Positions 9,515 to 49,121 of a DNA stretch of 49,121 nt are shown here, in pieces. The translations under genes were made by a program, and so were the position numbers. The stretch lies in assembly GCA_003990765.1 (NCBI GenBank), contig RBNJ01000033.1, positions 1-49,121 on the forward strand. Direction: 5' to 3'. How positions within the stretch are numbered: the first letter of the stretch is position 1; each line of letters starts with the position of its first letter. Below the pieces are notes generated by a model, which was not told the DNA's origin, ran no database searches, and was given only the letters and a program-made list of their open reading frames with translations. The DNA is from Jimgerdemannia flammicorona (taxonomy: Eukaryota).

Positions 9515-9707
9515 GGAGGGCACAAAAACCACGACGTCCTGGGAGCAAGTTTGTTCTTGTCCAGTGACGCCCCAACCAACGCATGGGCAACAAAACCTTG
9601 CCATCTCTAAGAGGAGGCGCGTGGTGGAGGGCACAAAACCACATCCTGGGAGCAAGTTTGTTCTTGTCCAGTGACGCCCCAACCAACGCATGGGCACAAA
9701 AACCTTG
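9515..9707. repeat. Imperfect ~85-bp direct duplication (9515-9600 and 9626-9707)
   Basis: Both copies read GGAGGGCACAAAA..CCTGGGAGCAAGTTTGTTCTTGTCCAGTGACGCCCCAACCAACGCATGGGCA..AAAACCTTG. Confidence 0.9.
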
Positions 9708-10462: not shown

Positions 10463-12395
10463 ATGGCCAACCTGGAGAAAGACGAAGATGCCAAGGCCTT
10501 CCTCCCCCCGCCCGTGAATTCTAGGCAGGCCCCAAAAAGTCACCCCATCCACGTCATTGGCGCCGTGGTCCTCTTCTATTTTGTAATCTCCCTCTCCGTT
10601 GTCTTCCTCAACAAGTTCATCCTTTCCACCTCCGAGTACAAATTTCCGTACCCGCTGTTTGTCACGTGGTTCCAACTCGTCGTCGCGCTGATCGTGTTGC
10701 TTGTGTGGAGCCATCTGGGCAAGACGTACGTAGAAAAGTGTTTTGTTAGGTGTTCACATGGAATCGCTAGTCGTTGGAGATGTGCGAAATGGCGAGGGCG
10801 TGAGTGGGCGATGACAAAGCATGGAGAGCGGTTGGGAGGGTGGGAAGGAAATACACAACGCGACACTTTACGCAATTGGAAAATGGCGGCGGAACGAGAG
10901 AGCTCTGGATCGTGAAAGTGACACACACCGCCAAAATATTACCCTGTACTGATCCTTCATAATCACTCATTTGATATCTTGACCAATAGCAACAAATCTT
11001 TTGCGCTGATTCCGCCCTACGAATTCAATCTTGAAATCGCTCGCAAGGTGGCCCCATTGACCTTCATGTACGTCATGATGCTTGCGCTCAATAACCTGTG
11101 CTTGCAATACGTCGAGGTCACATTCTACCAGGTGAGCTGAATGCATCGGAATGGAAACTCGGTGAATATGGGAGATCATGAGGGGCTAGTGATTCATTGA
11201 GCGAAAGGACATTATGATTTCTAAGGCGATTTTTTTTTACTTTATTTTTTGCACAATTCCCCAGGTTGCCCGCTCTCTTTCGATCGTCTTCAACATCATC
11301 TTCACATTCACTATCCTGGGCCAGTCGACCTCGGCGCCCGCGATCATGGCATGCGTGATCGTCTTCTTGGGTTTTGCAATCGGCTCTTACGGCGAGATCA
11401 ACTTCTCGTGGGAGGGCGTCCTTTATGGTGTGGGATCATCGGCCTTTGTGGCCCTCTACGGCATCTACGTCAAGAAGACCCTGAGCGTCGTCGAAAACAA
11501 CCAATGGTTCGTAAAAGTCGGCGAGGGGAACAGGGGGTTGAGAACCCAGAGGGGTTCCTCTCTGGGGCCGGCGTCGTTCTGGTGCGGATAGAGTCGTTTC
11601 AGACTGATGGGATGGGAAGGGGGATGTTTGACCCGGGGATAGAAGGGAGGCAGACGGGGGGCAATGACGTTTAGCTGGCAATTTGACTGGATTTCGTATG
11701 GATTCTGGATTGTGGATTTTCCGCCGGCCATCGCTTATTTGACCATCTTTCATCTCGCTTTGCACCTGTCACCCTGTTTACTCTATTTCATATAGGCGCC
11801 TGCTTCACTACAACACAACACTCTCTATTCTTTTCCTCGCTCCCCTTGTCTTCTTCTCCGGCGAGCTCTCAGATATTGCAGCTTACGTTTACTTCCTCGA
11901 CGAGTTCCCCTTCTGGTTCCTGATGGTATAGTCTCGATCTAATCCGTTTATGAATCAATCAATTCATTTTTATGTACGAAATATTTATGTTTCTCATCTT
12001 CCATTCTCACGTCCGAATCAACTCTATTCGTAGACCATTACCGGTGTCAGCGGCTTCGCCGTCAACATCGCCATGTTTTTGCAGATCAAGTACACTTCCG
12101 CCCTGACCAACACCATCTCCGGTACTGCCAAAGCCTGCGTGCAGACCGTACTCGCCGCTATGATCTTCCAAAACCCGATTTCAGTGATGGTGAGTATCCT
12201 GTGAAGCAATCATCGAGTCTGTCATTCTGTGCACATCTGCTTGATTCGAAGCGGATCCTTGTCGGTTCATGATTTATTCTAATTGTTTATTTCATTATTT
12301 GTCGTGTTTCGCAGAACGCTACCGGCATCTTGCTCGCTCTCTTTGGCTCTGGTTACTATAGCTGGATCCGCTACAAGGAGATGGTCAGCAAGTAA
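10463..12395 (+). CDS. Nucleotide-sugar transporter, GDP-fucose transporter-like (SLC35C1/TPT family), multi-exon
   Basis: YFVISLSVVFLNK, PLFVTWFQ, NNLCLQYVEVTFYQVARSL, LLHYN, QIKYTSALTNTISGTAKACVQT. GT-AG introns. Ends WIRYKEMVSK* at 12395. Confidence 0.88.
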
Positions 12396-12411
12396 ATTCA
12401 TGGGAGTGAGA

Positions 12412-12412
<1 letters not shown>

Positions 12413-12494
<82 letters not shown>
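12413..12494. repeat. ~80-nt poly(A) tract
   Basis: Directly visible, one G interruption, about 18 nt after the transporter stop codon. Confidence 0.9.
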
Positions 12495-12497
<3 letters not shown>

Positions 12498-12888
12498 TTG
12501 GCAGTGATCTAGTATGACGATTGCTCAGTAGCCTGTGTTCGGGACCAGGACAGAACTAGCTGCGATTTTGGAGTTCTTTCTTTCTTTGCTTCCTTATCAT
12601 TCTTTTTAAAAAATTACGGTAATACCATTCATAGATTTGTGCCCTCGAGATCAGTGTGTTTGTTACGTTCACCTCGCTTCCCTCTGCTTGTGAAACTGTG
12701 CTCGTGATGATCCTCACGAGAGGCCAGATTGGATCTCAGCTTTTTCATGTAAATATTTGTTTATAAGGGGAGGGGGGGAAGGAAAGTAAAATTCACAAAG
12801 TAATTATGTAAATTGTTGGTATGTCACGTGTGGGTGGCTTGAGATTTATCGATTGGACGATGAGCAGTCACATTATTCATCTTCAACG

Positions 12889-14875
12889 ATGGCCTACCTC
12901 CTTCCACGCCGCCGTGTCGTCGTCACTGGTCTAGGGCTCGTCACACCCCTTGCCACCGGCGTCAAGAACACCTGGGACCGCCTCTTGGGCTCGCAGAGCG
13001 GGATTATTTCCCTGACCGATACGCCCGGGTATGAGAGCTTCGCCGACCTGCCCGTCACCATTGCTGGCGTGGTGAAAAGCGGGTCGAAGAATGAGGGCAG
13101 GTTCGACGCATCGGAGTGGTTAGATCGAGGGGTGAGATGAGCGGGGGTTATTTTTATGTGATGCGATGATCTGTAATGTGGTCGCGATCTGAAAGTTCAT
13201 AATTGTGTGGATTGCTTGGTAGGACGACCGGGTGATGACGAAGTTCACACAATACTTCATGGCGGCTGCTAAGCAGGCCTTGGCAGATGCCGAGTGGATC
13301 ACACCCTCAGACGAGGAGAAGCTTCGGACGGTACGTGAATTTGCGCAGTGATGTTTGTCGTCCGTCTTCATTATTAAGATATGTGCTTTGCATATTCACA
13401 TTCAAAAGGGTGTATGTGTCGGCTCCGGCCTGGGTGGCCTGGAAGATTTGGTAAGCACTTCGAACTCGTTCAAAGAGCAGGTTTGTGTCAATATTTACAA
13501 TTTGGATGTTTCCATTGTCGATATAAATTGATTTCATCTTGGAATTATTCATGGTTCGAACAAACACGAAATATTATTAAACAGGGCTACAAAAAGCTCT
13601 CGCCAATGTTCATCCCCAAGCTACTCGTCAACATGGCTGGAGGACATCTCACAATGAAATTTGGTTTTCGGGTGGGTAGTATTTTTGGGCCCTCTTAAAA
13701 GCAGCAAGCATGTCCTAAAATTTCATCGATGACATCACTTAGGGTCCAAACCATGCCGTCTCGACGGCGTGTACCACGGGCGCGCATTCGATAGGTGACG
13801 CCATGCGATTCATCCAGTATGGTGATGCAGATGTCATGATCGCGGGAGGGTCGGAAGCGTGTGTTCACCCGTTGGCCGTGGCTGGGTTTTGCAAGTGAGT
13901 TAAGCAATGTGTTGCATATTTAGGGCTCTTACGAAAAAGCAAACGGTCGGAATAGTGCAGGCACAAGTATTGTTGGAGATGCAAAGCATGGTTTCGCCAT
14001 ATCCTTTCGACGACACTTCATTTAAACCCTTTTCGCAATCCACCACAGAGCCAAATCTCTCGCCACAGGCTATAACTCCAATCCCACCGAAGCCTCCCGC
14101 CCCTTCGACCGCGATCGTTCGGGTTTTGTGGTGAGCGAAGGCGCCGGAGTCGTGGTGCTCGAGGAGCTGGAGCACGCGCGTCGGCGCGGCGCGCGCGTTT
14201 ATGCGGAGATGAGGGGATACGGTCTATCCAGTGATGCGCATCACATCACCGCGCCGCCTGACGATGGGAATGGCGCAGCCCGCGCAATGGCGAGGGCGTT
14301 GGAGGTTGCTGGGTTGGGCCCCGCCGAGGTGGATTATGTGAACGCTCATGCTACGTCAACGTCTTTGGGTAGGTTGATTTTTATTCGGAGCGGGAACGAG
14401 CTTTTGAAACTATCAAAGAGATGTCTAAACTCTTTGCACCATATCTAGGCGACGCAGCGGAAAATCGTGCCATCAAATCCATCTTTGCCGGCCACACGGA
14501 TCACCTAGCCGTCTCATCAACCAAAGGCGCCATTGGTCACCTACTGGGAGCTGCGGGAGCCGTCGAGGCCGTCTTCACGATATTATCAATTTATCATGTA
14601 GGTTGAGTAGGTTATTTACTTCCTTTTTCATTCGACGAAAGTAATATTGTTAATTGCTGACATTATTTTCATTCATACCTTCGTGCATGTAACAGAACGT
14701 TCTGCCCCCGACGTTAAATCTTCATAATCCGGGCGACCCGGCTGAGGACTTTATGCTCAATTATGTCCCACGCCAGGCGCAGGATCGTACTGGCAACGGT
14801 GGCGTGCGCGCAGCGCTGACCAACAGTTTCGGCTTCGGCGGGACCAATGCGAGCTTGTGTTTTGCAAAGGTATAG
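12889..14875 (+). CDS. CEM1: Mitochondrial 3-oxoacyl-[ACP] synthase (FabF-like, CEM1/OXSM), multi-exon
   Basis: [23 protein letters not shown] (catalytic Cys), [50 protein letters not shown]. Confidence 0.93.
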
Positions 14876-15022
14876 GTCCGCGATAGTTATTTAGTTATTT
14901 GCAATAAACGTGACTCAGGAAAAATGGTGGCTTGAGAAAAAGAAAAATATGGCAGTCACTTTCATTCTTGAAAGGGTATTTACCATTGAACAGCGAGATC
15001 TGCCCTTTGAGCGCTCGAAAAC

Positions 15023-18000
15023 ATGGAGGAACAATTTGCGAAAATACGCACACAGATAAACTCTAAATTGGAGAATCAGAAACAGGTACGCGCCACGAAA
15101 CTTTGCAGTTATCAATCGAGACTAGCTTTATCGGAAGTAATTCCCCAAAAGCACCTTTGAGAATAATATGTCCGTATGTTCACTCTCTACTCCTTTCTGT
15201 GACATTTGCAGGTGGCAGTTGCTTTGATAGCTGTTGAAGAGGTATGCATACTGTTGCGCCAGGAAGTTGTCTCGCAAGGAAATTGTCTCGTATTTTTTTT
15301 TTTTTTTTTTTTTTTTTCTCGGAGCACCGAGTTTACGACCTACTATCAAGTCATACTACCATTACCTATTTTTAGGCCCTGAAGGAGCAAAATGCACCGA
15401 AAACGCCGACGGCTTATTTTGCGGCTCTGGTAAGTCATGATTTATTTGCTTAGTCTTTGTGAATGGATGTGAAATTGATCCCAACCATCATGTACCGCAG
15501 ATGACTACCCTCGAGGCTCAGAAGAATGCGCAGGGCAGGTCGGAGATTCGGACGGCTATTCTATATCTTTTGGATATTGTCTTTCCGAGGTAAGGAGGGC
15601 TCATAATTTGCCTATCTTTGCGGCGGCGATGGCGGTATTGCTGCTTCATGCCCTTGATGATTGTTTCATAGAGCTGTGGAAACGTACCGATATTCTGTAT
15701 AGGTTGCCGCAGTCCGTGTTGCGGAGCAAGTTCCCAGAAGTTTTGGTTATTTTGGCGACATCTTTGGAAAAGGATAAGGCGGAGGCGCCTACTATCCGTT
15801 CGGTACGTTGTATCCTTATCGATTTGATGCACTTCCCCCTCCTCATTGTCCTTACTATCATCTCCCTTCTTCGCAGGTCATTGGTTGCCTCGAAACCCTT
15901 CTGATTGCCCAAGATACCGCGACCTGGATCCAAGCCACCACCAAAAAAGCTTTCCAAACCCTCCTCGTCCTCTCCATCGATCCCCGCCCAAAGGTCCGCA
16001 AGCGCGCCCAGGATGCCTCACGGAAGATCCTCACCCACCTACCGCCGCCGACCGTCCAGCATCCCGCCGCACCTATGACGGCTGATTTTTGTTTGAGAGT
16101 GCTCAAGGAATGCACCAAGACGGACCAGCAGTCCGCGTTGCATGTGCTGGCGTTGGTGAAGATGATTGTGGCCGTTTGGCCTTCTTCGGTATGCGAATCC
16201 TGTGCAATTTTATACAGTGGTTATAAGCAAAACAAAATTTAAGTAAACAACCTGGCTTTGACAGAGGTTGCATACTTACGTCATTAACCATGCGCGTTTC
16301 ACCTTTGCTCATTCTTCTCAATTCCGACACCAGCACTACGCTCCCCTATGCGAGATCATGCTGCAGCTTCCCAAGTTCAACAAGCCTTTCCTCACCATGT
16401 CCTCGTTTGAGGTGTTCGAGTCATTGTTCGGGAGTGAGAGTATCTCATTTGACGCGGAAAAATTTGAGGAAGTTTTGAGGGTGGGTATTTTTCTCCTTCA
16501 TCGGCATGGCATCAGGGATTTGAATCAAAGAAGTTCTTTGATGGACACCTGTCGATGGACGATGGATTTTTTTTTTTTTTGGTTGTGTGTTTAAATGACG
16601 AGCAGTATATGCAATTCAATTTTACGTAGATATGGTGCTGGTACTGGTAGAATAGCAGAATATCTGACTGATCGATATTTTGTACTTGTATTCAGGCCAT
16701 CTGCGAGTTGAAGCCAAGCGTTAACGACGAGCAACTGATGCCCCCGTGGCTTGAAATTGTTGGCAAAGGTTACCCTGCGTTTGCAAAGTACGTCGCATTT
16801 CTTTCGCCGTGTATACTCAGGCCGTATCTCATTGATCTCATCGCTCACAACCGCTCTTGGATTCCGTACTTTGTAGAATCAACCCGACGGGTTGCGCCGC
16901 CGCTCTTCTCACCCTCTTTCACCTTATCTTCCCTGACATGCAAACCCACACACGCACCATCTACCTACCCGTCGCCCGCTGTCTCGGCAAGTTGACTCTC
17001 CACTGCATCACAGACGATATGATTTCCGTGGCTTTAGCCACCGTCAACTCCGGAACTAAGACCCGTACTCCTCTGCAAGAGATTATTGCCGTGGTGGAGA
17101 ACGGGTTGGGGATTCGGTATCAAGCTGCGTGGAATGAGGTGTTAGTCGTATTGCAGGCATTGTTCAAGGTTCGTAGGGTGAAGGAATAAGTGTTTATTAA
17201 GTGCCTCCTGCGAAGGTATCTTTCTAAGATTGATATATGAAATTTCAAATAGCGTCTCCATCGTGCCTCCTCACCGCTCCTAAACGACGCCCTCGAATTG
17301 ATGGGTGAGCTGCGTCTGGCTCCTGAGGATACCTATATTGAACGTCTGGAGGCCGCTCTTGGCTCTGCAGTCGCCCACATAGGCCCCGAGAAATTCCTCC
17401 AAGTCCTACCTTTGAATCTCGAGAACCCGGGCACCTCCAATGCCATTGGCCGCGCCTTCCTTCTCCCCTTGCTTAAAGACCACATTACCAACACCGAAAT
17501 GGGATACTTTGTCCGCGAACTGATCCCCCTTGGCGACCGCCTCGCCCAGAAATCCCAGGAGTTCACTGACAAGGGTCGTGCGATCGAAGCTAAGGTCTAC
17601 GAGACCATGGCGCAGCAGATCTGGAGCCTCGTTCCCGGCTTCTGCGACCTGCCGCTCGACCTCCCGCATGCCTTCACCAAGACCATCGCCGAACGGTTCA
17701 GCAATGTCCTTTACTCGCAGCCGGATCTACGTCCCGTCATCTCGCAGGGCTTGCAAGCGCTCGTCGAGAAGAATCAGGCGTTGGCGAGGTCGGATGCCGA
17801 CGATGTAGATTTGAAGAAAGCATATGGACTGAGCAAGGCGGATGCGGTGAGGAATGTGCAGATTATGAGCGCGTTTGCGGTGAACTATTTGGCAGTGTAT
17901 TTCAATGTGTTCAGTCAAACGCTGCCGATGTATCGCGGGTATATCTTGGATGTGATCAAGTGTTATTTGGGAATCACGAACGCCAAGGTTTGTGCGGTTT

Positions 18001-20635
18001 TATTATCTATAATAAAACCTTTGGTGCATCATGTTGTATCATTGACCTCTCTATCGATTTTTATATTCTGTTCGCTCTTAGCACTGAATTTATTCACGTT
18101 TTCCATTCGCGATTCTCATTTATCACCAGGATACCAATGCCACCTTCAAAAAGGTTCTCACTCACCTCTCCCAATCTCTCGTCAACTCCACCCCGGCCAT
18201 TAACGATCCAACCATTCCCCCGCCCATGTCCTACACCATGATGGACCTCGCCATCACCATGGTCCCCTTCCTCAGCACCGACTCCACCCAACACCTCTAC
18301 GCCCTCGTCACCTCCTCGCTCCTCTCGCGTGAGGACGAACCCACCCTCCAAAAGAAGACGTACAAGGTCCTCAACCGCATGGCTGAGTGCGAGACCGGTC
18401 GCGCCGTCTTGCTGCACAATATCAACGACCTGCAGACCCGGTTGCTCGACGCGATGGGAGCGACCGCCCCGAGCTCAAAGAAGGATCGGTTGCAGACGTT
18501 GCTGAACACGGTGGAGTTGCTGCCAAGCACGGACCTGCATTTGATCCCGAGCGTCTTATCAGAGGCGGTCGTGTGCACGAAGGAGGTCAATGAGAAGGCG
18601 AGGATTTTGGCGTACGATCTTTTGGTCTCGATGGGGAAAAAGATGAGGGAGGGCGGGACGGTCGTGAACAGTAAGGTCGATGGGATGGAAGAGGATATGC
18701 CGGATGGTAGGTGTTTTGCAGCTAGCTTGTCGGTGTGGGTGCATTTCATAAGCAATGTGTTTTCTCGGATTCAGCAGACTTGCACTTTGTGTCGGTTCTC
18801 ACCTATTTATTTATCTTTCGGTCTGATCGCCTTGCATAGTGAAAGCGACAATCGCCGAGTACTTTATGATGGTGACAGCCGGTTTGGCGGGTTCGACGCC
18901 GCATATGATCAGCGCTACTATCACCAGTTTGTCGAGGTTGTTATTCGAGTTCAAAGGTATGTTACCTCAGTTTATATATATATATATATATTCCCTTTAA
19001 TATTACCTAAATAGTAGCGCATGCGATATTCAAAAATTATTATTATTATTATTATAATTATTATTATTATTCGTTCAGATTCCCTCAATCCCTCCCTCGT
19101 TTCCGACCTCCTACAGACAATGCACATGTTTGTCGAATCCTCAAATCGTGAGATTGTGAAATCCGCGCTCGGTTTCGTTAAGGTCGCGACTGTCTCCCTC
19201 GAGCCACATCTGCTGCAGCCCCACCTGCCGCAGATCGTCCTGGGCATTCTCACTTGGAGTCACGAGCACAAGAGTCACTTTAAGGCAAAGGTGCGGCACA
19301 TCTTCGAGCGGTTGATTCGCAAGTTTGGGTAAGTGGGAATATTACGATAGCGCCCATCGGCTTGGTTTGTACTATAGAGGACCGATCAAATAGGTGTGTG
19401 AATGAGCCATTCTCTCGGTATTCGATTCGCTTCATCTAGTTATGAAAAAATTGAAACCCTGGTCCCTGAAGACGACAAGAAGCTTCTGGTTAACATCAAG
19501 AAACGTCGCGAGCGTGCCAAGCGCAAAAAGGCAGCCAACGCTGAGATGGAATCGGATGGAGAGGAGGCAATTGAAGAGTTGCCCGCTGTGCATCACGGCA
19601 AGAGCTATAATAACGCATACGAGGATGCGCTGTATGGGAGCGAGAGCGAACTAGAGGATTCTGAAGAGGAGGAATCACATGGGTTGGATGCAGGGAAGGA
19701 GAAGAGGCAAAAAGAAAAGGTGAATTTGATTGATATTATGCGGGGGAACAAAGTCGTGTTTTTGTAGTGTTGGCATTTGGTTCCGTGAACGTATGCGCTT
19801 TATTTTTCATTTGGCTGACGTTACTATATCAATCGCCATTTTTTTTTATAGAATAAGAAGCAGATTAGTGAAACATGGATTAAGGAAGACATGGAAGGGC
19901 CGCTAGATTTTCTTGATCGCGGTGTTGTTGGGCGTATTACATGTAAGTTATTCAATTGATCTCTTCTTTTTCTTTTTCACTCCTTTCTTTCTGTTGTCGC
20001 TCCACTTACTTCATCCCACCTACCCACAGCATCCAAACCGACCCCTCGTAAAGGTCGCCGCGTGACGGGCGACGATTTCACGACGGGTGAGGACGGTCGC
20101 ATGATGATCAACGAATCCGACTCCGATGCCGATGCCGCTGGCATCGACGAGGATGGTGCGGCGGTGGCCGAGAACCATTACCTCCAGGCGCAGAGGAGCG
20201 AGGACGGGTTCACGCGTGGGCAAGGCAACCGCATCAAGTTCAACAAGAGGCGGAGGGGAGAGGCAGCTGGGGACGAGGATATGATGGATGTCGATGAGCC
20301 GACGAGAGAACCCGGCGCAGAGAAGAAGAGGAGCAATGGGAAGGGTGGAGTCGTTATGTTGGGCAAGGAGTATAAGGCTAAGGTAATTTCGATTGCGGTC
20401 GGGATTCGGTGGAGATTATTAATTATTGTACTTAATTCAGGCATTTACTTGAAATTCCTGGCCATAATAGCAACTCTAATCATATACCAATCAACCATTA
20501 CCACAGCGCGCAGGTGGTGATATCAAGAAGAAGGGCAAACCGGACCCATACGCCTACCTACCGCTCACCAAGGCGATCAAGAAAAAGGGCCAGCGCGGGC
20601 CGACGGTGTCCGTCACGGGCAAGGCGAGGAAGTAA
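15023..20635 (+). CDS. RRP12: Ribosome biogenesis HEAT-repeat protein Rrp12 (NUC173 domain), multi-exon
   Basis: N-terminus MEEQFAKIRTQINSKLENQKQ. Motifs DPRPKVRKRAQD, GPEKFLQVLPLNL, RAFLLPLL, QIWSLVPGFCDLPLD, REIVKSALGFVKV, HFKAKVRHIFERLIRKFG, GKEYKAK..GDIKKKGKPDPYAYLPL. Confidence 0.95.
19037..19071. repeat. (ATT)n microsatellite inside an RRP12 intron
   Basis: Directly visible; produces the poly-Ile artefact ORFs. Confidence 0.9.
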
Positions 20636-30943: not shown

Positions 30944-32074
30944 TTAGCAGCCTGAGCCCCACCAAGACTTCAGACACATACATACCCAGATTGTCTCAGC
31001 ATTCAGTGTATACCTCTTTGGGGCAACGAGATCCACCCCACCTGAGAACACCTGCTCGACAGGAGCACTGGAGGCAGGAATCGCCAGGTAGTCCCGAGCC
31101 ATACCACACAGGCTGGGGAAGTCCATTTGACGCAGCTGCATACCCTGATAGGTAGAGCAGTGGTTAGATTGATGGGTTAGATTGGTGGGTTAAATTGGCC
31201 CAACGCCTGCCTAACAACCCACCTGAGTTAGATTGGTGGGTTAAATTGGCCCAACACCCACCTGACAACCTACCTTCCACCAGTTGAGCACCTCCGTGCC
31301 CTCCAGCAGGACCATGTGGTCGCTGGCAAGGTAAATGGTAAGTTCGTCTATTGATGGTAGCTCTTCCACTGATGGCTCTCTCTTCCTCTTTCTGCCAAAG
31401 TAAATGTGAGACAGGAGGGATCCCTCGGCATATTCATCTGGACTTCGGCCGGAACCTTGCAGTGGTACATAGTTTTTCCAGTACACTTCAATTACGGCCT
31501 GCTTGGTTCTCTCAATGAAGTGCTGCTCCCAGCCCTGATCTTTATGGTATTGTAGCTTTAAGCATAGGTCCAGCACTGTTTGAAGAAAAGGAGAGTGAGT
31601 TTTTGTGGGGTTTCCTCTGCTTTGGAAGGGGCAACAGCCACATGCCGACATTGACATACCTGTACTGATTGAGTATATGGCAGTATCTGTTTGGGAGTAG
31701 TATTTTTTAAGCTTGCTTAGAGCAACCTCCATGGTGTCTCTCTGATCCGAGCTTAACCATAAATCACCGCAACCCTCCAGCCTGTCCTCGAGCTTGTCCT
31801 CTAGCCGGTCAATCAGAAGGTTGTATACCGGTATCACAGAGCTTATTGTCGGGGTCATTTGTTTGACTATATCCTTCATACAATCGTCGAAACACTGGCA
31901 GTTATATGTGGTGAGGTGTTGCATTGTGTGGAGGTAGATAAAATGAGTGTGGAGTCAGGGCAACCACCACTTACTTCCAAAACTCTAACAACATTCCTAA
32001 GTACATCCCACTCACTTTCACCTAGAGCCTCGGCCTGTATTTCCTTGTCGGCAGCCATTGTTGAATCTATTGGC

Positions 32075-36519: not shown

Positions 36520-36586
<67 letters not shown>

Positions 36587-37123
36587 GGTTTTCATTGACT
36601 TGAATTCATACTTTTCGTAATGCAAGAGGATTCCTGGGAAAACTCGAGAAATGGCGCCGAAGACAATCGTTGAAGGAAGCTACAGCGCGTGTTGCCAACG
36701 TCGGTAGAGCTAAATTTATCCACCATATAAACTTTTAAGAGACTGAAATCGTTGTCGATTTCTTCGCAACAAGCAATACTAGTGCACGTAAATTCGTCAT
36801 GAACGGCATGACGTAACCAATATATTTATATAAATGATCATCACGCATTTGAAGAACTATTTAACAAAATTTTTGAAGCCCTACGTTCTATGTTGATTTT
36901 TCTGTGTGCTCAAAAAAGTCGAAAAAGCAGACCTCCGGCAAACATGTTGTTTCGGCAGAGCATTCCCAATTTACCAGTATGGCTTGTCTTTGGATACATA
37001 TTTTGTAAAAAGATACCGTCAGAAAGAAATGAAGCTGTATTCCAACTTGTAATTACATGCCGCATTTTCGGATCAACTGCCTTATCAGGTACCGTACCGT
37101 AAGTTCCTCCAACAGATTTGAAA

Positions 37124-40100
37124 TCATTTCCCATATTCGAGAGGATCGTCCAAAGAAATTTGTCTCCGTAGTGACGCTAAATGGAAGCAATTCGGTATTC
37201 ATGAATGACCAATCATAACAACACTGTTCCTATGCCACTGAAACAAATGGAAATTTAGAGAAGTTTTCTGATACCTGAGAGTGTATTTTCCGAAACAACA
37301 GGTGCTAGTGAGGCTACCGTATTGTGAAATCCATCTCCCTTTCCTTCTTTCTCCAACACGGCTTTCATCATGGCGTCCAATCGCGTCAGTATCTCATCCA
37401 CCTTGGGCCTCTTGGCCGGGTCACCGTCCCAGCACTGGGAGTAGAGCTCGACATAATCCTCCGGCGTACCCTGGATTGGCTCCTCCCGGAACCCCAAATT
37501 GATTTGCATAGCTGTAGTCATGGTATCCAAATCTGAAAAGGGCTCGCCACCATCTGCACTGATTACCCAAAAGATTACGCCCAGACTAAAAACGTCACCA
37601 CGCGTGTCATGCTTAGCTCGCTGGGACAAGCGTTCTGGTGGGATCTTTGTAGACCAGGGGAAGTGGAATTTGGTGAATGCTTAAGAGGGTATGAAAGATA
37701 AAAACTAAGGCAGGTCACACGGTTGTAACAAAATAAAATGGGTACATACGTATGGTGCTCGCCCTTGGGGGTTGAATTTCGAGGTTTTGGCGGATGCCAA
37801 CTTTCCCAAGCCAAAGTCGGCGATGAGTGCCCTTCCCTCGGCATTGATGCTATAAGTGCCAAGCAATCAAATCAGTCACAAAAAATTTCCAAAGAAAAAT
37901 ACGACGAATGCGATAGAGATACACACAGAATGTTCTTGCTGTGCAAATCGCGGTGGATCACGTTTCTGCTGTGTATGTATCGGAGCGCTTCGGCAATCTG
38001 GATCGCGAGGCTTAGCTTGTCAGCCCAGCTTAATTGACCCATGTTCTTCTTCAGGTAGTCTGGGAGGGCGCCCTGCTCAGCATATTTCATTACCAAGATA
38101 TAGGAGTTCGTTTTCGGATCTATGTTTGCAGAAAATAATTTGTTGACTGAGCTTAAATCCTATTAGCAGGCGGGAAATCTTTTGCAGTGAACTTGAGGGT
38201 ACTTACCCTGTGATATACCATAGCATCTCGCCACAAAGTGTTCATCATCCACCTTGCGGATAAGTTGATACTATCAGATATATAAACAGCAGTTCAGTGA
38301 AACATAATAGATTTCACCGGTCGTGCTAAAAAAATTGATTATAAATTAACAGTTACGTATTTACCTCATTTACCAAAGACTGGAATGCTCCTGCGCTTTC
38401 CGGTTGCTCGAACAAGTACTTGAGGGCATACTCCTTTGATTTTAGTTTCTTGCCGGTGGTATGGTAGATTTTAGCGAATCCTCCTTCGGCGATACGGATA
38501 GGATTGTTGAATTCTTCGTCGAAGTCGAAGAATTCGATGCGCCCCTCTTTGATGGCCGACTGAAGCCAGTTCTTCGGCCCATCCAAAGTGGGATCCTCTC
38601 CACTAGAAAATTTGGATTCAAGCGGCGACAGAGCTCTATCATTGGTTTTATCCTGAATTTGGCCAGGGTCTGAGGCTTTTGAGGGCGCTTCACGTAGATT
38701 AAGTGGTGATTGGTTTGAAGTTATATCTTTAAACTCTAGAGAATATAAAGAACATAAGCTGCATCCCAACACACATCTGAAGAGAGCTATTAACAAAGTT
38801 CTAAATACCGTTGGGATCCGGCTTGGGCAAGATCGCTTCCCGATCCATTGCCTCGGTCAGAGGTTGTACTCCCTCGGTGTCAATGTAGTTATCTGAGATG
38901 TACAGGGAACGGATGAGCAATCACAAATGTAGAGAACAGTCGTATCAAAAGGATTGCAACTCACAAGGAAGATGTGTCCAAATTATATCGTGCGTTTTTT
39001 CGAGGCCAGTTTCCAAAGTCTCCAAGGCTTTCTTTAACAGACAAATATTCTGTCCAGCTTGTATGTCGGACGATTTGACGGCCTCGGAAGCAGCGTATTT
39101 CAAACATATAATGAAAGGCGATTTCGTATCTGTCACGATCGGTATGATGTCCTCCTGGCAGAACTTCGAGAAGCTAGCGTGGAGAATTTCAGATGCTTTA
39201 CGTCTGAACACAACCAATCCACCAAATGCCACTTGCTGCGACACACCGTCCTTTTCGAGTTTGTGCTCGCCGGCGTGAGGAATGTCAACAATGTCATAGT
39301 ATTGAATGTCAGAAATATTGTTCCTCACTGGCCTTCGGGCGTGTTCTTGAATGATACGGAGTTGCGATTCGAGCACCGTGGAGATTCCTGGGATGAAAAA
39401 ATATTAACATGGTTAAGAACTCGGAAGAGAATCTAATAATCATATTTAAATTGCTCACCATGTTTAGAAGACTTGACAATGCCAATCACAAATTTGTCAT
39501 CATATCGCTCCGGTGTTGGCAAACAAAGTCGGATTTTCATCATTGAATTGCACCGTCTCACACCTTCTCTAAGAGCAACATGCATTTTGTATTCTTCATG
39601 TCTGTCCGACAATAACATGCTATGGCAGAGTTGTTGCAAGTTCTCATTACTACAATCGATCCTTTCCGATGGCGAGCAAGTGTCGTTGAGAAAATAACTT
39701 AAGACCGCGAGCACACCTTCTGTGATTGGTCCGATGAAGAGAGAACACATATAGAGTAGCAGGCGCTGCTGTGTTGGAAGCGCGTCGATGGTTGGTCGGA
39801 AACGGGTTTCGAGGTTTCTACCAAATGAGCCATCTACTAGTATTGTACTGAAGTGTTCACGAATGATTTCCTCAAGAGATGCATTGCGATATTGTGGTAA
39901 GCCGACTGCATGGCCAAGAGATTCCAGACACAGTGGATGTCCGTCTACGAGCCTGACGAGGTCGTACAGAGTATGTGTGATAAAACACTCCTCCATCCTC
40001 CGCATCCTCACGTGAGAATCAAGATTTCGAATGAACAACTTGACACCGCTGTCAATGTCTAAGCCAGTAAATCCGTCCAGATACATCACTTCCTCCTGTG

Positions 40101-42003
40101 ATATCCACCTTAGACGTTGGTGTGATGTCGCAAGAATTCTAACTGGGATCCCTGGTATTAACATTATCTTCTGAAGCCAGCTCACCAACGCTACAGCACC
40201 TTCATCACCTCTGACTTGCGCGCGTGTCAAGACATCGGCTTGATCGAGGATCAGCAAACTTGTGGGATAGGACCGGAATTTCATAATGATGATCCGTTCC
40301 AACGTTCGAAGGTCATTACCAGAATCTTCCTGGAACATGACATGAGCCAGGCCCTGAAGATATTCGATGGCCGATATCTCATTCGAAGGATCGAATCGCC
40401 AAGCGAAGATCCCACCGGGGAAGAGAGGCGCTACCCGCCTGATCGCATTCTCAGCCAACGCCGTCTTGCCCTGACCGGCAATGCCCTCAATGGTGTACAA
40501 GGAACATGTCTGCGTCCCTCTCATCGCCATTCTCCTCAAAACGGCGGTTATCTTAATAAGCTCCTCCGTGCGTCCGCAAAAAAATCGTGTGAAAGAGATA
40601 TCCTCGAGGTTGTGGGGGGGCATATAGGCTTCGATCATGGGTGTACCCCTCTCGCACTTGAACGCGCCATCCTCTTCCCGAAATGTGGACGAGTAGAGCA
40701 CCATCGCACCCGGAAAGTAGCTTCGTTGGCGGATGTCTTTTGGGTTTTTCATGGAGGCGCGTGCCTCCAACATCGCCTTTTCGACCGTGCAGCCGCTGGC
40801 AAGGCACTGATAGAATTTGGACTCGAAATTGCGGAGGAGGTCGTCCGGCAGGGGACAGTTTGAACCAATGGCGTATGGAATGCCGTTTTCGGTTAGGTTA
40901 CGGGCGACACGGCGGGTTTCACTCGCGGACAGGAACGCTAGCCGTAGGTTCATTGTCGCGTCGAGGCGCAACGTGTCAGCGAAGTGGAGACCTCCTGTCT
41001 CCTGATCTTCAAAAATAAGAGCTCTCGCATCATCACCATCGAACTGCGTGCCGCAGTGTCCCATGAAATGAAGCACCGCGGCACTCTCAGGCTTTCCCCT
41101 AAGCAACTCATACATTCGGTCAACGGTCGGCGGGAACACACGCTGCAGTAATACCATTCGATTGTTTTTCTTAAACCCATCAAATAATGCCTGAAACTGA
41201 TCGCTCAGATGCAGATTTTCAAATTTCTTGGCGTTGGGATCGTTTGGCGTAACAATGGGATCCGGTACAACGGTGACGATGCGCAGCGGAAGAGGGGGAA
41301 GTTTTGGTGGTGGATTGTACGATGACTGGGACGCCTTCGGATTGCGCGGTAAAGGAGACCCCACCGGATTGCGCGATAGCTGAAGCGCCTTGGGATTGCG
41401 CGGTGGCTGAAGCCCCTTCGGATTACGTGATGACTGTGCTCCCTCCGGATTGCGCCATGGCTGAGGCGTCTTTGAGTTGCGCGGTGGCTGATGATTGCCC
41501 GATGACTGAACCCCCTTTGGATTGTGCAATGGATTGTGCAATGGCGGAGGTCCCTTAGGATTGTGCGAAAGGTCCGCAGGCTGAGGACCCTTTGGGTTGT
41601 GTAAGCGTACGAATATGCATTGTCTGGTGAGATACGCGTTATTGCCCCAAGCGTACTCCCAGGGGATGATGTCGAGGTCGTGGTCACCATTGAGATCTAG
41701 TAGGATCCGACGCTTTGAAAGAGGCCGTAACATATCCTGCAGCAGACGCCAGGCAGGGTCGGATTCCGTTTTCGAAAAGAGGGCCCTGAACAATTTTTTG
41801 CCATATTTTCTGAGATCTGCAGATTTGGGGTTTAAGTCGAAGACATCGACTACGATAGATCGGCCCTCTTGGATTTCTTGAAGGTTGAAGGAATGGCTTT
41901 CAACGAGCTTAGCCAGGTAAACATCGGCGGTGGAAACCTTTACACGGACTCTGGTTTCTTTGGGGTTGTCACTGTTGGTATATTTTGACAAGGATATCAG
42001 CAT
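37124..42003 (-). CDS. NLR-like fusion protein of about 1400 aa: CHAT (Cys>Ser), NB-ARC-like STAND NTPase, degenerate GTPase-like segment, TKL-type kinase
   Basis: Exons 42003-39459, 39387-38965, 38892-38809, 38735-38365, 38270-38207, 38119-37927, 37849-37750, 37644-37275, 37176-37124. All GT-AG and phase-compatible, 4203 nt in total. CHAT: IPWEY, VLHFMGHC, LIFED, LAFLSASET. STAND: FCGRTEEL, GIAGQGKT, LLILDQAD, ILATS, GHPLCL, YKMH. Kinase: AEGGFA, ALK, HRDLHSKNIL, DFG, PYIPPE, DVFSLG, CWDGDPAKRP. The frame stays open upstream to 42108, so the start is uncertain, and the last exon is tentative. Confidence 0.82.
41317..41600 (-). repeat. Coding tandem repeat of 27 bp / 9 aa (consensus RNPKGxQxx) inside the CHAT region
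   Basis: RNSKTPQPW RNPEGAQSS RNPKGLQPP RNPKALQLS RNPVGSPLP RNPKASQSS, preceded by HNPKG units. Confidence 0.9.
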
Positions 42004-42557
42004 GTTTGTGGGTGGTTCTTCCGTTTGACGCAGTCTGTGGCTTGTTTCCAAGGAAACCTTAATTATTGTGGAGTTCGGCAGTCTCCACCGGAATCGCTTG
42101 ACAGTCAAAGGGCGGTAATTGGTCTGGATGTAGACTGAAAGGGCGTGTGGTAGTCGCGATGCGTTTGCTAAGAATTCACTAAGTAAAGTGTCTGAAGAAC
42201 CTCTCGGAAGGCTTGAAAAATGACCGCTTGTGCACCTAATCCTTAGATCTACGAATCCTCAGGATATGTGCTCTAGTTGTCAATTTCCTAATAAATTCTG
42301 ATTATCTGAACCAGCTCTGTCCTTTATTGCATGCTTGAATCCTACACTATTTATACATGGAGGTCCCTATCCCCTCGAACCTACTAGAATACTATTAATG
42401 CCTCTATGAAACCACAAGAAGTATCTGGAATACTCCACTGAGTAATTAGAGCACTTTAGAGATAGAAATGGAAATAGACTTCTGATTATATGTATGTTTT
42501 AGAATCCAGGATTTTGCCTATTTTGGATACATCCTGTTTTTGACCATATGCTCCTAC

Positions 42558-43800: not shown

Positions 43801-44906
43801 GACATTACTCTCAAGGTTAAGAAGTTTTACCCCAAAGCTAAGATCCTAGAATATAAAACTAAAGGAGCCATAGAAATGGATCTTGCTAGTATCTAAGATG
43901 CTATTCTTGAACCACAAACCACTACTCTACTAGACACTGGAATTGGAGTCAAGTTACTAAAGAACTATGCTGGAATTATCAAGACTAGGAGCAGTCTGGC
44001 CAAGAGTGAAATCTCAGTTAAAGGAGGAGTTATTGACTTTGATTACACTGGTGAGATCTTTCTTATAGTTAGAAATCACAACTCTATCATCCTATTCAAA
44101 GTCAAGAAGTATGATAGAATTGGCTAAATACTGATCTATGAAGTTAAGAAGTCTAAGATAACTGAAGTCATTGAACTTATCAAGACTAAGAGAGAAGAAT
44201 AAGACTTTAGATCTACTGAAAGAGGAGTCTATTCTGTCACTAAGATTACTAAACTCTAGTATAAGAAAGATAAGAACCAGAACAAATATATATATACTAT
44301 TAGAAAAAACTTTCCCCTAGAAGAACAACTTCTCAAGATTCTATATCAGAATGAAGGAGTACTTACTATAGACTTCAGAGACATCCATAATTAAGAACTT
44401 AAGTACTACTATAAAGTTGATATCAGTGATACTAAGCTCATCTATCAGAAAGCCAGACCCATACCATCTGCCTATAGAGAATAGCTGCAAGCAGAACTCA
44501 AAGAAATAAAAGAAGCTAGTATTATTAAGCAAGCTATCAGCTCTTAGACTTCACTCATTATCCTTACCCCAAAGAAAGAAAGTAAGTCTGGAGAGTTTGC
44601 TTCAAGACTTTGTATTGATTATAGAAAGTTCAATGCAATCACTAAGAAGGATAAACAGCTCTTGCCAAATATTCAAAAAATTCTTATTATCCTTAGAAGC
44701 AAAGCCAAATACTATACTATCTTGAATCTGTTCTCAGACTTTTATCAGATCAGTCTCACTTAAGATGCCAGTGAGAAATCAGCCTTCATCATACCTAATA
44801 TCACCTATATCTATCTATAAATACCATTTGAAATATACAATGCTCCAGCAAGTTTTCAGTAAATGATGAATAGAGTCTTTAGTAATGAAATTGGAAAATG
44901 GCTTAT
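43801..44906 (+). mobile_element. Decayed Ty3/Gypsy pol fragment: dUTPase followed by the N-terminal half of reverse transcriptase
   Basis: dUTPase 43807-44220: KGAIEMDL, DTGIGV, KTRSSLAK, GGVIDFDYTGEI, DRIG*I, TKREE*DFRSTE. RT ~44500-44906: RLCIDYRKFNAITKKD..LPNI, FYQI, EKSAF, IPF.IYNAPASFQ*MMNRVF. Element probably extends upstream. Confidence 0.88.
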
Positions 44907-45439: not shown

Positions 45440-48400
45440 GGCCGTAGCATAGGGTTGCTTGTAAGACACATCCCTTGCATGCAGTGTTCGAATTTTGGCC
45501 TCGGAAGGGCCTTTGTAAGAGAATCCGCCGTCATAGACTCTGTTGGCATATATTCCAGGCATATAGTACCGTTTTCCATGCATTCGCATATATAATGATG
45601 TTGAATGTCGATATGCTTAGTCCTTGCATGATGTATAGGGTTCTTTGCTAATGCAATCGTAGATTGATTATCCTGTAAGATCAGTGTAGAGTCTCGTTCC
45701 TGAGTATACCCTAATTCCTTTAGTAATTTTCATAGCCATACGGCTTCCTTAGTTGCTGTGGACAATGCTTGATATTCCGCTTGCGTAGAGGATGTGGCCA
45801 CCGATGATTGCTTACGTGTTTGCCACGAGATAACTCCTTTGCTGATATGGAAGAGATATCCGGTCGTAGAGCGCCAGTCGTCGAGGTCGCTGGCCCAATC
45901 GGCATCGCAAGCTCCGGAGATATGCACGTGACTCCCGCTTTGTCCTTTATCACTGCCCAAACTGAGCGTATAGTCCGCTGTTCCTTTGATGTACCTGAAT
46001 ATGCGCTTAATTGCTGTCCAATGCGAGTTGTCATAGCATGAGGCGTACTGCGCCACTTTGTTTACTGCATAAGAGATGTCTGGTCGCATTCCTTGTATAA
46101 GATATATAAGGGATCCCACTGCTTGTCTATAGGGGATGTTCTTGTCGGGCGTAGAGTCACTTTTCCTTAGCCTCATCGTAGTTTCCATTGGCGTCGCCAC
46201 TGGCTTACAATCACTCATCCTGAATCGTTCAAGTACTTGCTTAGCGTAGGTGGCTTGGGATAGGTGTATAGCGCGCTTGTTTCTGTCACGTGTAATCGCT
46301 ATCCCCAATAAGAAGGACGTGTCGCCTAAGTCCGTCATCTCAAATTCCTGGCATAGCGTAGCTTTTACTTCGTTAACTTGGCTCCTCTTGCTAACGATTA
46401 TGATATCATCGACCCATATCCCCAAGTATACCATTCCTGAGGATGTATGTCGCGTATATATGCATGGATCCACTTCGCACTGCCGAAATCCGTTGTCAAG
46501 CAGATATTGATCGATCTTCCGATTCCATAGTCTCGCTGCTTGCTTGATTCCGTATAACCCTTTATGTAGTTTGCATACGAGCTCTTTCCGCCCGTCGTAT
46601 AGTTCATATCCTTGCGGCTGTTGGACGTATAGTTCCGTATCTACATCACCATTCAGGAACGCAGTCTTAACATCCATCTGCTGTATTTTGTAATCGTACT
46701 CAGCGCCGATAGCCAGTAGTATGCGTAGAGAAGTGAGCTTGAATATGGGAGAGAACGTCTCGTCGTAGTCTACGCCGTAATCCTGTGAATATCCCTTAGC
46801 AACGAAGCATGCCTTGTACTGCTCTATGCTTCCATCGCTTTGATGCTTAACTTTATATACCCAACGAGATCCTATAGCTTGATGATCCCTTGGAAGAGGT
46901 ACTAGATCCCAAGTACCATTGCTGATGAGCAAATTATACTCTTCATCCATCGCTCACTTCCACTCCTTACTATCAGGGGAGGATACGGCTTCGTCATATG
47001 ATCGTGGATCCACCATTGTCAAGTATGTACACTCGCAAGCATAGTTCACGTGATGCTTGCGTTGGGTCTTCGGAACATTCCAATAGTCTCCTAGATCCGT
47101 ATCCAATGTCCTGGATTTGCACTTTTGTTTACCTTTCGTAGATGGGAGAATCGTCTCCGCTTTGCTAGTCTCGTCATCGCTATCCCTTATCTCAGTTATC
47201 CTCGGTCCAGGAGGTGGCGAAGGAATCCTCACTGGGATAGGTGACATTTTCAGGGGTGTCTTCAGGGGTGTGACCGGAGGACTCGCCGGAGGCGTAGTAC
47301 TGGCCGCCAGAGGCATAAGGTTGATTGCCAGGGGCGTTCCCGGAAGCGTATGTGTAATCGTAGTTGTCTTCTCGATATTCACGTATGAATCCTGTACGCC
47401 GGGTTCCTTGAATGTAATGTCACAGGAGTTAACAATTCTCTGCTTCCTTGGATTCTACAGTCTATACGCTTTGCAACCATTGCTATACCCGAGGAATACA
47501 TGCTTAGTAGCCTTTGGATCAAACTTATCCTTATTTCCGCTTTTATCTAACACGTAGGCTTTGCTTCCGAATATGCGTAGATGTGAGATATCGGGCTGAT
47601 TTCCACTCCATAGCTGATGTGGTGTAGCATTATCCTCGTTCCTGGATTGCTGATCATTGCCACAAGCATCCTTGCTTAGAGCTCGAGAAATACACCTATT
47701 GCGTATATACACTGCCGTATTCACCGCTTCGGCCCAAAAGGGCTTCGATAGATCAGCCGTGTTGAGCATTATACAGGCCATCTCCACTACCATTCGGTTA
47801 AAACGCTCCGCTACGCCATTCTGCTGAGGCGTATAGGGAGCTGTCATTTGGTGTTTTATCCCGTGTCTCGTCAAGAAGTTCTTGAACTGATTATTAACAT
47901 ACTCCTTGCCGTTATCTGAGCATAGTGCTCGAATTTTACATCTGGTCTCGTTTTCGACGATAGCCTTGTATTCTCTGAATTTTTCCAAAGCTTCACTCTT
48001 TGCCACCATAAGGTATATGTAGACCTTGCGCATATAGTCGTCGATGAACGTAATAAAATACTTCTTCCCGGAGTGTGATTTATTTCTCGCAGGTCCCCAT
48101 ACGTCTGAGTGTACCAAATCGAGTATCCCTGAGGCTCGTTTCGTCTGTTCCTGGAAGGGTTGTTGACAGGCCTTGTTCATCGTGCAATCATCACATGGCA
48201 TATGGTCCGGGCGTAAGTTGTCCGGGAGTCTGCTCACCGAACCGTTCCTTATCATATGTTCAAGGCTTGTCGGGCTGATATGTCCGAGTCTCCGGTGCCA
48301 GGTATATGCTACGCTGGTCGTTCCAGACCACGCTGCATTTGCCGCAGCTGCGCCACTCGGCGTTTTGTTTATTGCATATAAGTATCCATGCTTCCTGGTC

Positions 48401-49121
48401 GTTAATGCTTCTTTGCCATCAAGATCGTATATCTTCACGCCATCGCACGTTCCTGAGATTCGCTTATCCCCTCGTGCTAGCGTTCGACCCATCGAGAAGA
48501 GGTTCTTTCCTATCCCTGGAGCGTACAGTATGTCCATAAAGGTCGCGTAGGGTTCCTTAATGTTTCCATGCAAATACATGCTGACGTTGCCCTTCCCCTG
48601 AGTGTATATAACCTTATTATTGCCCAATCTGATATGCACGGGGTTGTCAAAGGGTTCGTACATAGAGAACCACTCGTGGTGTGAAGTCATATGCTGGGAT
48701 GCACCCGAATCTAGGAGCCAGATGTCCTCTTCGTCGCATGCAATGTTAGCGCTCGGTGTATACTCGTCTCTGGCGCTGGCGCATGTGCTGTTTACGTCAC
48801 CACCACTTTTCGCACCTTGAAAAGTATTCCGAATGTCGGGTTCCGTAGATGTCGAGCAAGCGCATTTGCAGGTAGAACTGGCGCTGGTGGATGTAGAACT
48901 AGATCTCGTAGATGTTGGGGTGGCTTGCGCATTTTTCACCGGTCCAAAAGGGTCCGAATCTACATCGGCGAAGAACAATCCTCCCTTATCGGCATTAGAA
49001 TCTGCGCTATTCGCTTGCTTGCCACTCTTTCCTTTCTTTCCACCCTTGTCCTTTTCCTTTTTCATGCATTCATTCGCACGGTGTCCATACTTGCCGCAAT
49101 AATAGCAGCTCCCGTCGAATT
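45440..49121 (-). pseudogene. Copia gag-pol in a single frame, broken by three premature stops
   Basis: Stops at 47455 (YRL*NP, TGG>TAG), 46954 (WK*AM) and 45730 (WL*KLL). The last two fit CGA>TGA. The 3' end is approximate. Confidence 0.9.

Follow-up and report, generated by a model that had tools for sequence, protein, structure and literature searches.

We found that the contig RBNJ01000033.1 of the fungus Jimgerdemannia flammicorona, which we analysed as one stretch of 49,121 nucleotides (nt) and call the window below, carries on its minus strand one expressed and spliced gene for a 1400-amino-acid (aa) STAND protein of the NLR-like type. The protein of this Endogonaceae fungus begins with a CHAT domain that holds a proline-rich insert, continues with an NB-ARC-type NTPase, an orphan alpha/beta domain and a disordered linker, and ends in a TKL-like protein kinase. 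We hold this gene model and its domain order with high confidence. By comparison with aligned relatives the CHAT domain appears to be crippled by loss of its catalytic cysteine. Our favoured reading of the protein, to which we give a probability of a little under 40%, is that the kinase is its enzymatic output and would be activated by induced proximity, by analogy with known STAND proteins.

The DNA of the window is eukaryotic; its introns are short and of the GT..AG kind, and its G+C content is 25-54%. When the nine exons (Table 1) are joined they give 4203 nt, or 1400 codons with a single terminal stop. The eight coding introns are 71-105 nt long and all eight run from GT to AG. Each of them also holds at least one in-frame stop on read-through, so the frame is open only after all eight splices. 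Unspliced, the region is split into one long open reading frame (ORF; 39433..42258, minus strand) and five shorter minus-strand ORF pieces downstream, two of which match Pfam kinase models (3.2e-17 and 6.1e-13; 63.1 and 49.1 bits). The original prediction had joined these pieces into one gene through eight GT-AG introns, and both the open 1400-codon frame and the junctions seen in RNA contigs support it. Its start of the CHAT/STAND ORF, the ATG at 42003, was also correct, but the length of 891 aa was not: the ORF measures 941 aa from stop to stop and 856 aa from this first in-frame ATG. An end of intron 7 at 37680 was tried and ruled out, because the RNA contigs show 37644/37750.

We compared the gene with contigs from two runs, X1 and X2, which come from two studies of one organism and whose labels only guess that the material is RNA. 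Sampled words of 37100-42300 were present at 72% in X1 and 61% in X2. Within 36600-42500 all eight coding introns were skipped at their exact predicted borders in contigs of both runs, with CT..AC ends on the plus strand. Since eight introns have been removed we take this material to be spliced RNA, the formal alternative being an intron-less DNA copy. The proposed junctions 39459/39387, 38965/38892 and 38809/38735 were all present in both runs. One contig in each run joins 39198-39386 to 39458-39766, with 189 nt on the shorter side, removing the stop at 39433-39435. This intron-1 splice indicates that the kinase is joined to the CHAT/STAND part, as had been predicted, and is not cut off at that stop. 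A second contig of 1.5 kb in each run, also spliced, extends from about 39227 to 37098 in X1 or 37065 in X2, and shares about 30 nt with the contig over junction 1, an overlap expected of assembly-graph breaks. Contigs of this kind are blind to minor isoforms, to transcript starts and to the co-occurrence of all exons in one molecule.

Further evidence that exon 1 and the downstream exons belong together comes from the coding sequence and from related proteins. Exon 2 has no methionine; beyond aa 840 the next one is at aa 1005, which belongs to exon 3. Exon 2 is therefore translatable only from exon 1. P0015 (RUS13063.1, partial), from Endogone sp. FLAS-F59071, contains the C-terminal part of the same STAND module and the domain encoded by exon 2 in one protein. 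P0004 (798 aa, 44% identical to exon 1) ends where the window has its exon-1 donor, following the short hydrophobic strand that both proteins have. In 27 of the 29 aligned relatives of the exon-2 domain, the called protein stops no more than 31 residues past the point in the alignment where exon 2 of the window ends, which fits an internal exon with a conserved boundary. The nearest named record, P0010 (RUP49637.1, 'kinase-like domain-containing protein, partial', Jimgerdemannia flammicorona, 453 aa), is a kinase-only model. It starts inside exon 2 and uses the same junctions from there to the stop codon of the gene; 2 of its 453 residues differ from the window. Over the stretch that P0010 covers, the identity is 98%.

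That the NCBI record is a partial kinase model, and that contigs lie deeper over the kinase than over the 5' part, would suit an arrangement of two genes, in which CHAT/STAND ends at the intron-1 stop (reached after 8 codons when intron 1 is retained), the kinase has a start of its own and the joining contigs are rare read-through. Contig depth, however, cannot rank the parts of a gene. The junction 39386/39458 in both runs speaks against two genes, as do a conserved domain without a methionine in exon 2, the start of P0010 inside that exon under a partial flag, and the joining of STAND to the exon-2 domain in P0015. We regard two genes as close to excluded.

The CHAT domain named in the original prediction was found clearly above the Pfam cut-off (Table 1), and a profile of the family (alignment A2) matched PDB entry 8tl0, 'CHAT domain-containing protein', at 2e-7. 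The motif H-F-M-G-H (aa 312-316), one of whose two histidines is the catalytic one, is invariant in 8/8 rows and in the 12 covering rows of a wider alignment, A5. We found serine, Ser361, in the column of the catalytic cysteine. This column is Cys in 7/7 close homologues and in 12/12 rows of A5, eight of them new, and thus in 15/15 relatives. We take it to be the nucleophile column from the conserved A-C motif of the family and from what we recall of the fold. The AGT codon of Ser361 is one base change from TGT, and the X1 contig over 40654-41078, which includes this region, has 0 differences from the window. The proposal that CHAT is an effector therefore holds for the presence of the domain but not for its catalytic cysteine.

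The proline-rich insertion within the CHAT region is present in none of the 7 homologues. Tandem Repeats Finder placed arrays at 41334-41464 (period 27) and 41518-41544 inside it. An unspliced intron was considered as its source and ruled out, because the repeat keeps the reading frame and one contiguous RNA contig (41126-41893) retains it.

The NTPase carries the sequence G-I-A-G-Q-G-K-T at aa 507-514, with its G-K-T column conserved in 13/13 rows of A5, and L-L-I-L-D-Q-A-D at aa 583-590, aligned in 13/13 rows. G-H-P-L follows at 688-691, its H-P-L present in 12/12 covering rows, and the column of His808 is common to the 4 close-family rows only. We take these to be, in order, the Walker A P-loop, Walker B, the G-x-P motif and the MHD-like histidine of the winged helix. 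Pfam returned AAA_22, AAA_16 and NPHP3_N for the window ORF, all sub-threshold, and no row for NB-ARC (PF00931) at E<=0.1. Against the PF00931 cut-off of 23.5 the close homologues P0001 (19.0) and P0002 (23.3) fall below, and distant relatives lie above at 28-39 bits. The family profile A2 matched Apaf-1 at 4.7e-5. A model of aa 455-848 had a predicted local distance difference test score (pLDDT) of 80-94 over the nucleotide-binding domain and was poor after about residue 270 of the model. With this model Foldseek placed Apaf-1, CED-4 and the wheat G10 resistosome at ranks 1-6 (E 2e-8 to 1e-6), ZAR1 and Roq1 at lower ranks, and ORC/Cdc6 interspersed from rank 7. The profile and fold matches agree with the earlier assignment of an NB-ARC-like STAND module.

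The interval between STAND and kinase, not remarked on in the original prediction, is more than a spacer. We found that it contains a conserved orphan alpha/beta domain of about 150 aa. A search of a representative library gave 30 matches at E<=1e-3 and 7 at E<=1e-10, with 31-48% identity; 29 of the 30 were aligned, P0035 (a 410-aa match in several stretches) being left out. A model of P0015 built from 31 sequences had a pLDDT of 80-95 over this middle domain and consisted of a helix, three strands, a helix, a strand and a long helix. The domain matched 0 Pfam families (E<=0.1 or 0.05) and 0 NCBIfam families. Its profile found no credible match in the PDB (best E 0.35), its best Atlas score was 0.88 (recognition 1588), below the useful range, and no row of a Foldseek search against the PDB reached E<=1e-3, those obtained being weak and RNase H-like. 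In a wide VIA-align comparison the best Z was 6.3 (Rag-like GTPases and parts of chitinase barrels), under the noise level of 7-8. The Roc domain of LRRK1 was among its weak fold matches (Z 4.9) and is not counted as evidence. Because no search rose above noise we name no fold. A scan for related loci with alignment A4 matched 177 stretches, of which 0 were confirmed, and our literature search found no description of the domain.

In P0021 (RUS12921.1, partial, Endogone sp. FLAS-F59071) the middle domain precedes an NB-ARC-like P-loop, for which Pfam gives NB-ARC at a sub-threshold 8.4e-4. In the window and P0015 the domain is C-terminal to the STAND module, so the orphan domain is found on either side of STAND modules. 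It is conceivable, although we think it very unlikely, that the domain is a new homotypic adaptor of an NLR network in Endogonaceae, through which a kinase-bearing 'sensor' with a dead CHAT domain would dock onto and activate 'helper' NLRs.

The linker that follows (aa 990-1073) is rich in Pro, Ser, Thr, Gln, Asn and Gly. The kinase itself was scored as a whole in P0010, two residues off the window, where Pfam gave PK_Tyr_Ser-Thr at 1.1e-47 (163 bits) and Pkinase at 2.9e-40 (138.8 bits). As the original prediction had it, the spliced protein contains the lysine, the alphaC glutamate, HRD and DFG of a C-terminal kinase: K1123, E1141, H1218-R-D1220, N1225 and D1238-F-G (1238-1240) are all present. 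The columns of the lysine, the asparagine and the DFG aspartate are invariant in 8/8 rows, the window and seven Glomeromycotina kinases. These seven, at 32-37% identity, also have in common with the window a pre-kinase motif and H-R-D-L-H-S-K-N. The PK_Tyr_Ser-Thr model outscores Pkinase, and the named relatives that match best are 'kinase-like' proteins of Glomeromycotina; we presume that the group is the one named TKL (tyrosine kinase-like). We found no literature on a tyrosine kinase-like expansion in Glomeromycotina.

In each protein search the 8000 candidates sharing most words were scored, so absences are weak. With exon 1 the threshold of E<=1e-3 was passed by 9 proteins, among them seven with 43-52% identity, and no kinase is listed for any of the 9. 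Paralogues with an intact CHAT cysteine exist. In the close homologues P0001 and P0002 CHAT and NTPase are followed directly by ankyrin repeats. Pfam found no ANK, TPR, WD40, LRR or HEAT repeats in the 6 ORF pieces of the window at E<=0.1, and P0010 has no repeats either, in agreement with the predicted absence of a repeat sensor. Lacking C-terminal superstructure-forming repeats, the protein departs from the canonical tripartite NLR of effector, NOD and repeats.

A metagenome scan for distant relatives gave 23 loci. We scanned 11 of the 23 for domains, picking those with long ORFs. Nine (L002, L004, L005, L007-L009, L011, L012 and L017) have uninterrupted ORFs of 1112-1584 aa with CHAT, NB-ARC above the Pfam cut-off and TPR, and their matches, with 27-30% identity in the best tblastn segment, span CHAT and NB-ARC; L013 has CHAT and the start of NB-ARC in a 500-aa ORF, and L021 has TPR families only. 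The metagenome contigs are covered to 81-95% by ORFs of at least 150 aa and look prokaryotic. Because the matches span both domains in such distant relatives, CHAT and NB-ARC appear to travel as one module. A tree of 14 rows separated 8 Endogonaceae-type from 6 TPR rows with split support 100/100; it does not settle the position of the window inside its clade. We conclude that there is a CHAT-NB-ARC family with a variable C-terminal part, which is ankyrin in two close homologues, TPR in distant ones and the middle domain here.

Relatives of the same part of the gene are also seen among the contigs. Many contigs are only 90-95% alike to the window (97/174 in X1 and 72/136 in X2), and 37 of the 40 listed variant sites fall in exon 1. 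This suggests that paralogous transcripts overlap the CHAT/NB-ARC part. Over the middle-domain and kinase exons none were seen in the X1 and X2 contigs and the listed variant sites, a weak negative. One X2 contig that lies on the 5' leader at 42100-42263 has a depth of 850 and departs from the window by small indels and substitutions; this leader seems to be common to a paralogue or repeat with high expression.

With P0010 as query for longer proteins we obtained 471 matches. PF12770 (CHAT) was in none of the best 120 of these, and no second protein with CHAT and kinase was found among the matches listed. Among long relatives of the kinase the best come from Glomeromycotina, at 32-40% identity, and have it fused to a wide range of other modules; one of them, Gigaspora margarita P0059 ('NACHT domain-containing protein'), has its kinase at 39-243, NACHT at 502-659 and pentapeptide repeats.

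Several of these observations would be expected of a young chimeric gene without a specialised role, that is, an NLR paralogue in a transposon-rich region that lost its CHAT nucleophile, expanded a repeat and captured a kinase cassette, and that is decaying or neutral although transcribed and spliced. The single base between the serine codon and TGT points this way, as do the 93-aa repeat insertion, unique among 8 sequences, a terminal branch that is the longest of the clade (0.68 against a median of 0.43), the copia and hAT remains on the flanks and the want of a second CHAT-kinase protein among those best 120 matches. On the other hand, 1400 codons and 8 introns are intact, the NB-ARC and kinase motifs are kept, P0010 preserves the same frame with its 2 differences, and the junction from STAND to middle domain is common to another genus (Endogone, P0015). 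We consider such a chimera unlikely.

We next set the protein beside known systems. An N-terminal CHAT domain is known from fungal NLRs of the order CHAT - NACHT/NB-ARC - TPR/ANK/WD40, some of which are clustered with gasdermin genes (PMC10197012, PMC12881547). As in these, CHAT is N-terminal to a STAND NTPase here, and the relatives of our protein are CHAT - NTPase - ankyrin or CHAT - NB-ARC - TPR. In contrast, our protein has no repeats, a serine for the cysteine and a C-terminal kinase, its host belongs to Mucoromycotina and not to Dikarya, and, unlike the gasdermin-linked cases, no gasdermin family turned up with Pfam in ORFs up to about 13 kb away, or at all among the 128 and 94 ORFs scanned in the window, from which intron-split genes could escape.

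C-terminal kinases have also been described on fungal NLRs. Nine T-NACHT NLRs of Sordariales carry a C-terminal PKinase that resembles CHK2/PRD-4, and they are proposed to be integrated decoys (PMC12258605). They share with our protein a kinase C-terminal to the nucleotide-binding domain of an NLR-like fungal protein. However, the Sordariales proteins are of NACHT type, with a complete canonical architecture beside a CHK2/PRD-4-like kinase, whereas ours is of NB-ARC type, has no repeats, carries a TKL-like kinase of a Mucoromycota family and has an orphan domain in between. Fungal protease domains fused to 'kinase-like domains' are mentioned (PMC12881547), and kinases are listed among N-terminal NLR domains (PMC4986451, PMC9815663). 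With C-terminal kinases on fungal NLRs and protease fusions to kinase-like domains already in print (PMC12258605, PMC12881547), the architecture is less isolated than originally claimed. The combination of CHAT without its cysteine, NB-ARC, no repeats, an orphan domain and a TKL-like kinase was not found in the literature that we searched; supplements of PMC12258605 may list relatives.

The Gigaspora protein P0059 has a kinase of the same family as ours (32-40% identity, the pre-kinase motif and H-R-D-L-H-S-K-N) in one chain with a STAND NTPase. It differs in that the kinase is N-terminal and followed by NACHT and pentapeptide repeats, and it has neither CHAT nor the middle domain. By profile and by structure the NTPase module comes closest to the NB-ARC clade of Apaf-1, CED-4 and plant resistosomes, and the Apaf-1 apoptosome likewise pairs a caspase-family domain with an NB-ARC switch. 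Apaf-1, however, recruits a separate caspase via CARD and senses via WD40, whereas here the caspase-like domain is fused and has lost its cysteine, and a kinase is C-terminal. ROCO proteins (LRRK1/2) are built as Roc GTPase - COR - TKL kinase. As an analogy they too place a nucleotide switch N-terminal to a TKL-type kinase in one chain, but the switch is a Ras-like GTPase and not STAND.

STAND oligomerisation that drives effectors into proximity is established for Apaf-1 and plant resistosomes. By analogy with these, the NB-ARC module would be a nucleotide-dependent switch that oligomerises on activation. The C-terminal part, with the middle domain as the best candidate for a sensor or regulatory element, would sense a signal and autoinhibition would be released; NB-ARC oligomerisation would follow and bring the kinase domains together, which could then activate one another by trans-phosphorylation. 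We favour the kinase over CHAT as the output because the CHAT nucleophile is gone and the kinase residues are intact. This is consistent with the family of the kinase, a Mucoromycota family that occurs in other proteins, such as P0059, in fusion with NTPase switches.

Several points weigh against the kinase as output. What follows the NTPase on its C-terminal side in STAND and NLR proteins is usually the sensor and not the output, and we know of no ligand that would activate the protein and of no substrate or partner. Of the glycine loop only the middle glycine is kept, in the degenerate form A-E-G-G-F-A (A-x-G-x-x-A), which makes kinase activity uncertain; 2 of the 7 Glomeromycotina relatives likewise lack one glycine of this loop. 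The sensor-I arginine of T-S-R is replaced by histidine (T-S-H; 40131-40139, in the region of aa 622-631). T-S-R is found in 8/8 distant TPR-type relatives, and the close Endogonaceae-type clade has His, Tyr, Asn or Gly instead. Ser361 might itself act as a nucleophile in this fold. Finally, contig depth drops toward the 5' end, and a shorter transcript, or an isoform that retains intron 1 and encodes CHAT-NB-ARC alone, is compatible with the contigs.

The kinase, perhaps together with the middle domain, could also be an integrated decoy in the sensor position, an alternative that the original prediction likewise named, whose modification or binding by a foreign factor would trigger NB-ARC, with the signal passed on via a CHAT-active helper paralogue. 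A kinase C-terminal to the NTPase is on the usual sensor side, and a dead signalling domain would fit the sensor of a sensor/helper pair, as in plant NLR pairs. Paralogues with an intact cysteine do exist, and the diverged contigs and exon-1 variant sites described above point to their transcripts. The nine Sordariales NLRs with a C-terminal PKinase are proposed to be decoys, and kinases are common as integrated domains of plant NLRs (PMC12258605). Those Sordariales cases, however, keep canonical repeats beside the kinase, of which this protein has none, and all the catalytic residues of the kinase are kept, which a pure decoy would not need. Moreover, plant pairs are usually adjacent, but no second NLR-like gene was found with Pfam in the window, where 128 ORFs (88 aa or longer) and 94 ORFs (62 aa or longer) were scanned. 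We therefore judge a decoy somewhat unlikely, and retain the kinase as enzymatic output as our favoured reading.

Table 1. Features of the gene in window coordinates.
Feature	Position	Strand	Description
Whole coding region	37124..42003	-	ATG at 42003 to TGA at 37124; 9 exons, 4203 nt, 1400 aa
Exon 1	39459..42003	-	aa 1-848: N-terminal region, CHAT, NB-ARC module, start of middle domain; homologues begin at the same Met
CHAT (caspase-like) domain	40714..41745	-	aa 87-430; Pfam PF12770, 2.2e-13, 50.8 bits against a cut-off of 24
Pro-rich tandem-repeat insertion	41302..41580	-	aa 142-234, 93 aa inside the CHAT region, 25% Pro
Ser361 codon (AGT)	40921..40923	-	catalytic-Cys position of CHAT, from alignment columns and codon
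NB-ARC-type STAND NTPase	39514..40572	-	aa ~478-830; P-loop G507-T514, Walker B L583-D590, G-H-P-L 688-691, His808
Intron 1	39388..39458	-	71 nt, GT..AG; holds the stop 39433-39435 that terminates the long ORF
Exon 2	38965..39387	-	aa 849-989, orphan alpha/beta middle domain
Exon 3	38809..38892	-	aa 990-1017, linker; junctions seen in contigs
Exon 4	38365..38735	-	aa 1018-1141: low-complexity linker, pre-kinase helix motif, glycine loop, K1123, E1141
Protein kinase domain	37378..38496	-	aa 1098-1349, spread over exons 4-8
Exon 5	38207..38270	-	
Exon 6	37927..38119	-	
Exon 7	37750..37849	-	
Exon 8	37275..37644	-	
Exon 9	37124..37176	-	aa 1384-1400 and TGA stop; junction 37176/37275 in both runs, C-terminus the same in P0010
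Possible intron of the 3' untranslated region	36988..37097	-	110 nt; joint 36987/37098 with CT..AC ends, X1 only, 29 nt on the shorter side; weak

The only Pfam matches within about 13 kb of the gene are a fragment of a hAT transposase dimerisation domain (30947-31189, minus strand, 9.8e-13) and a dUTPase exon (43897-44124, plus strand, 3.5e-13). A copia-type retrotransposon occupies 45733-49119 on the minus strand; one of its ORFs matches RVT_2 (2e-76), and a second, with zinc knuckle, Pol beta-barrel, gag-pre-integrase and integrase core, runs off the end of the window. A housekeeping block at 4574-19011 consists of a P5A-type ATPase (minus strand) and, on the plus strand, a member of the triose-phosphate-transporter family, a beta-ketoacyl synthase and RRP12. 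Between 19000 and 33000 many ORFs of 88-237 aa overlap on both strands at 45-54% G+C, with no Pfam family at 1e-3 or 1e-2 except the hAT fragment. A stretch of 25% G+C lies at 34-36 kb. At 36522-36585, about 540 nt past the stop of the gene and about 200 nt beyond the last RNA-covered bin, is a perfect run of 64 T (64 A on the gene strand), perhaps the tail left by a retroposed element, or else plain low-complexity sequence.

We found no NLR-like family described for Endogonales in the literature, and PMC12574304 makes no mention of NLR, CHAT, NACHT or NB-ARC. Elsewhere, NLR-like receptors are reported as not found in Mucorales (PMC4986451) or in 6 and 14 Mucoromycotina proteomes, which may not include Endogonales (PMC7928374), and NLR counts as low as one per species are given for Mucoromycota (PMC12258605). 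The gene and its relatives show that an expressed CHAT-NB-ARC family is present in Endogonaceae. Since its NTPase scores below the Pfam NB-ARC threshold, domain-based censuses would miss this family. It offers three natural experiments: a caspase-like domain without its cysteine, the exchange of repeats for a domain without a named fold and a kinase, and an orphan domain that occurs on either side of NB-ARC. If the middle domain is an adaptor, it would be a fungal counterpart of CARD/PYD or of sensor-helper wiring, in a subphylum reported to be without NLRs. If the kinase is a decoy, the logic of integrated decoys would extend to early-diverging fungi. If it is the output, as we favour, the protein would allow the control of a kinase by a STAND switch to be tested in compact form.

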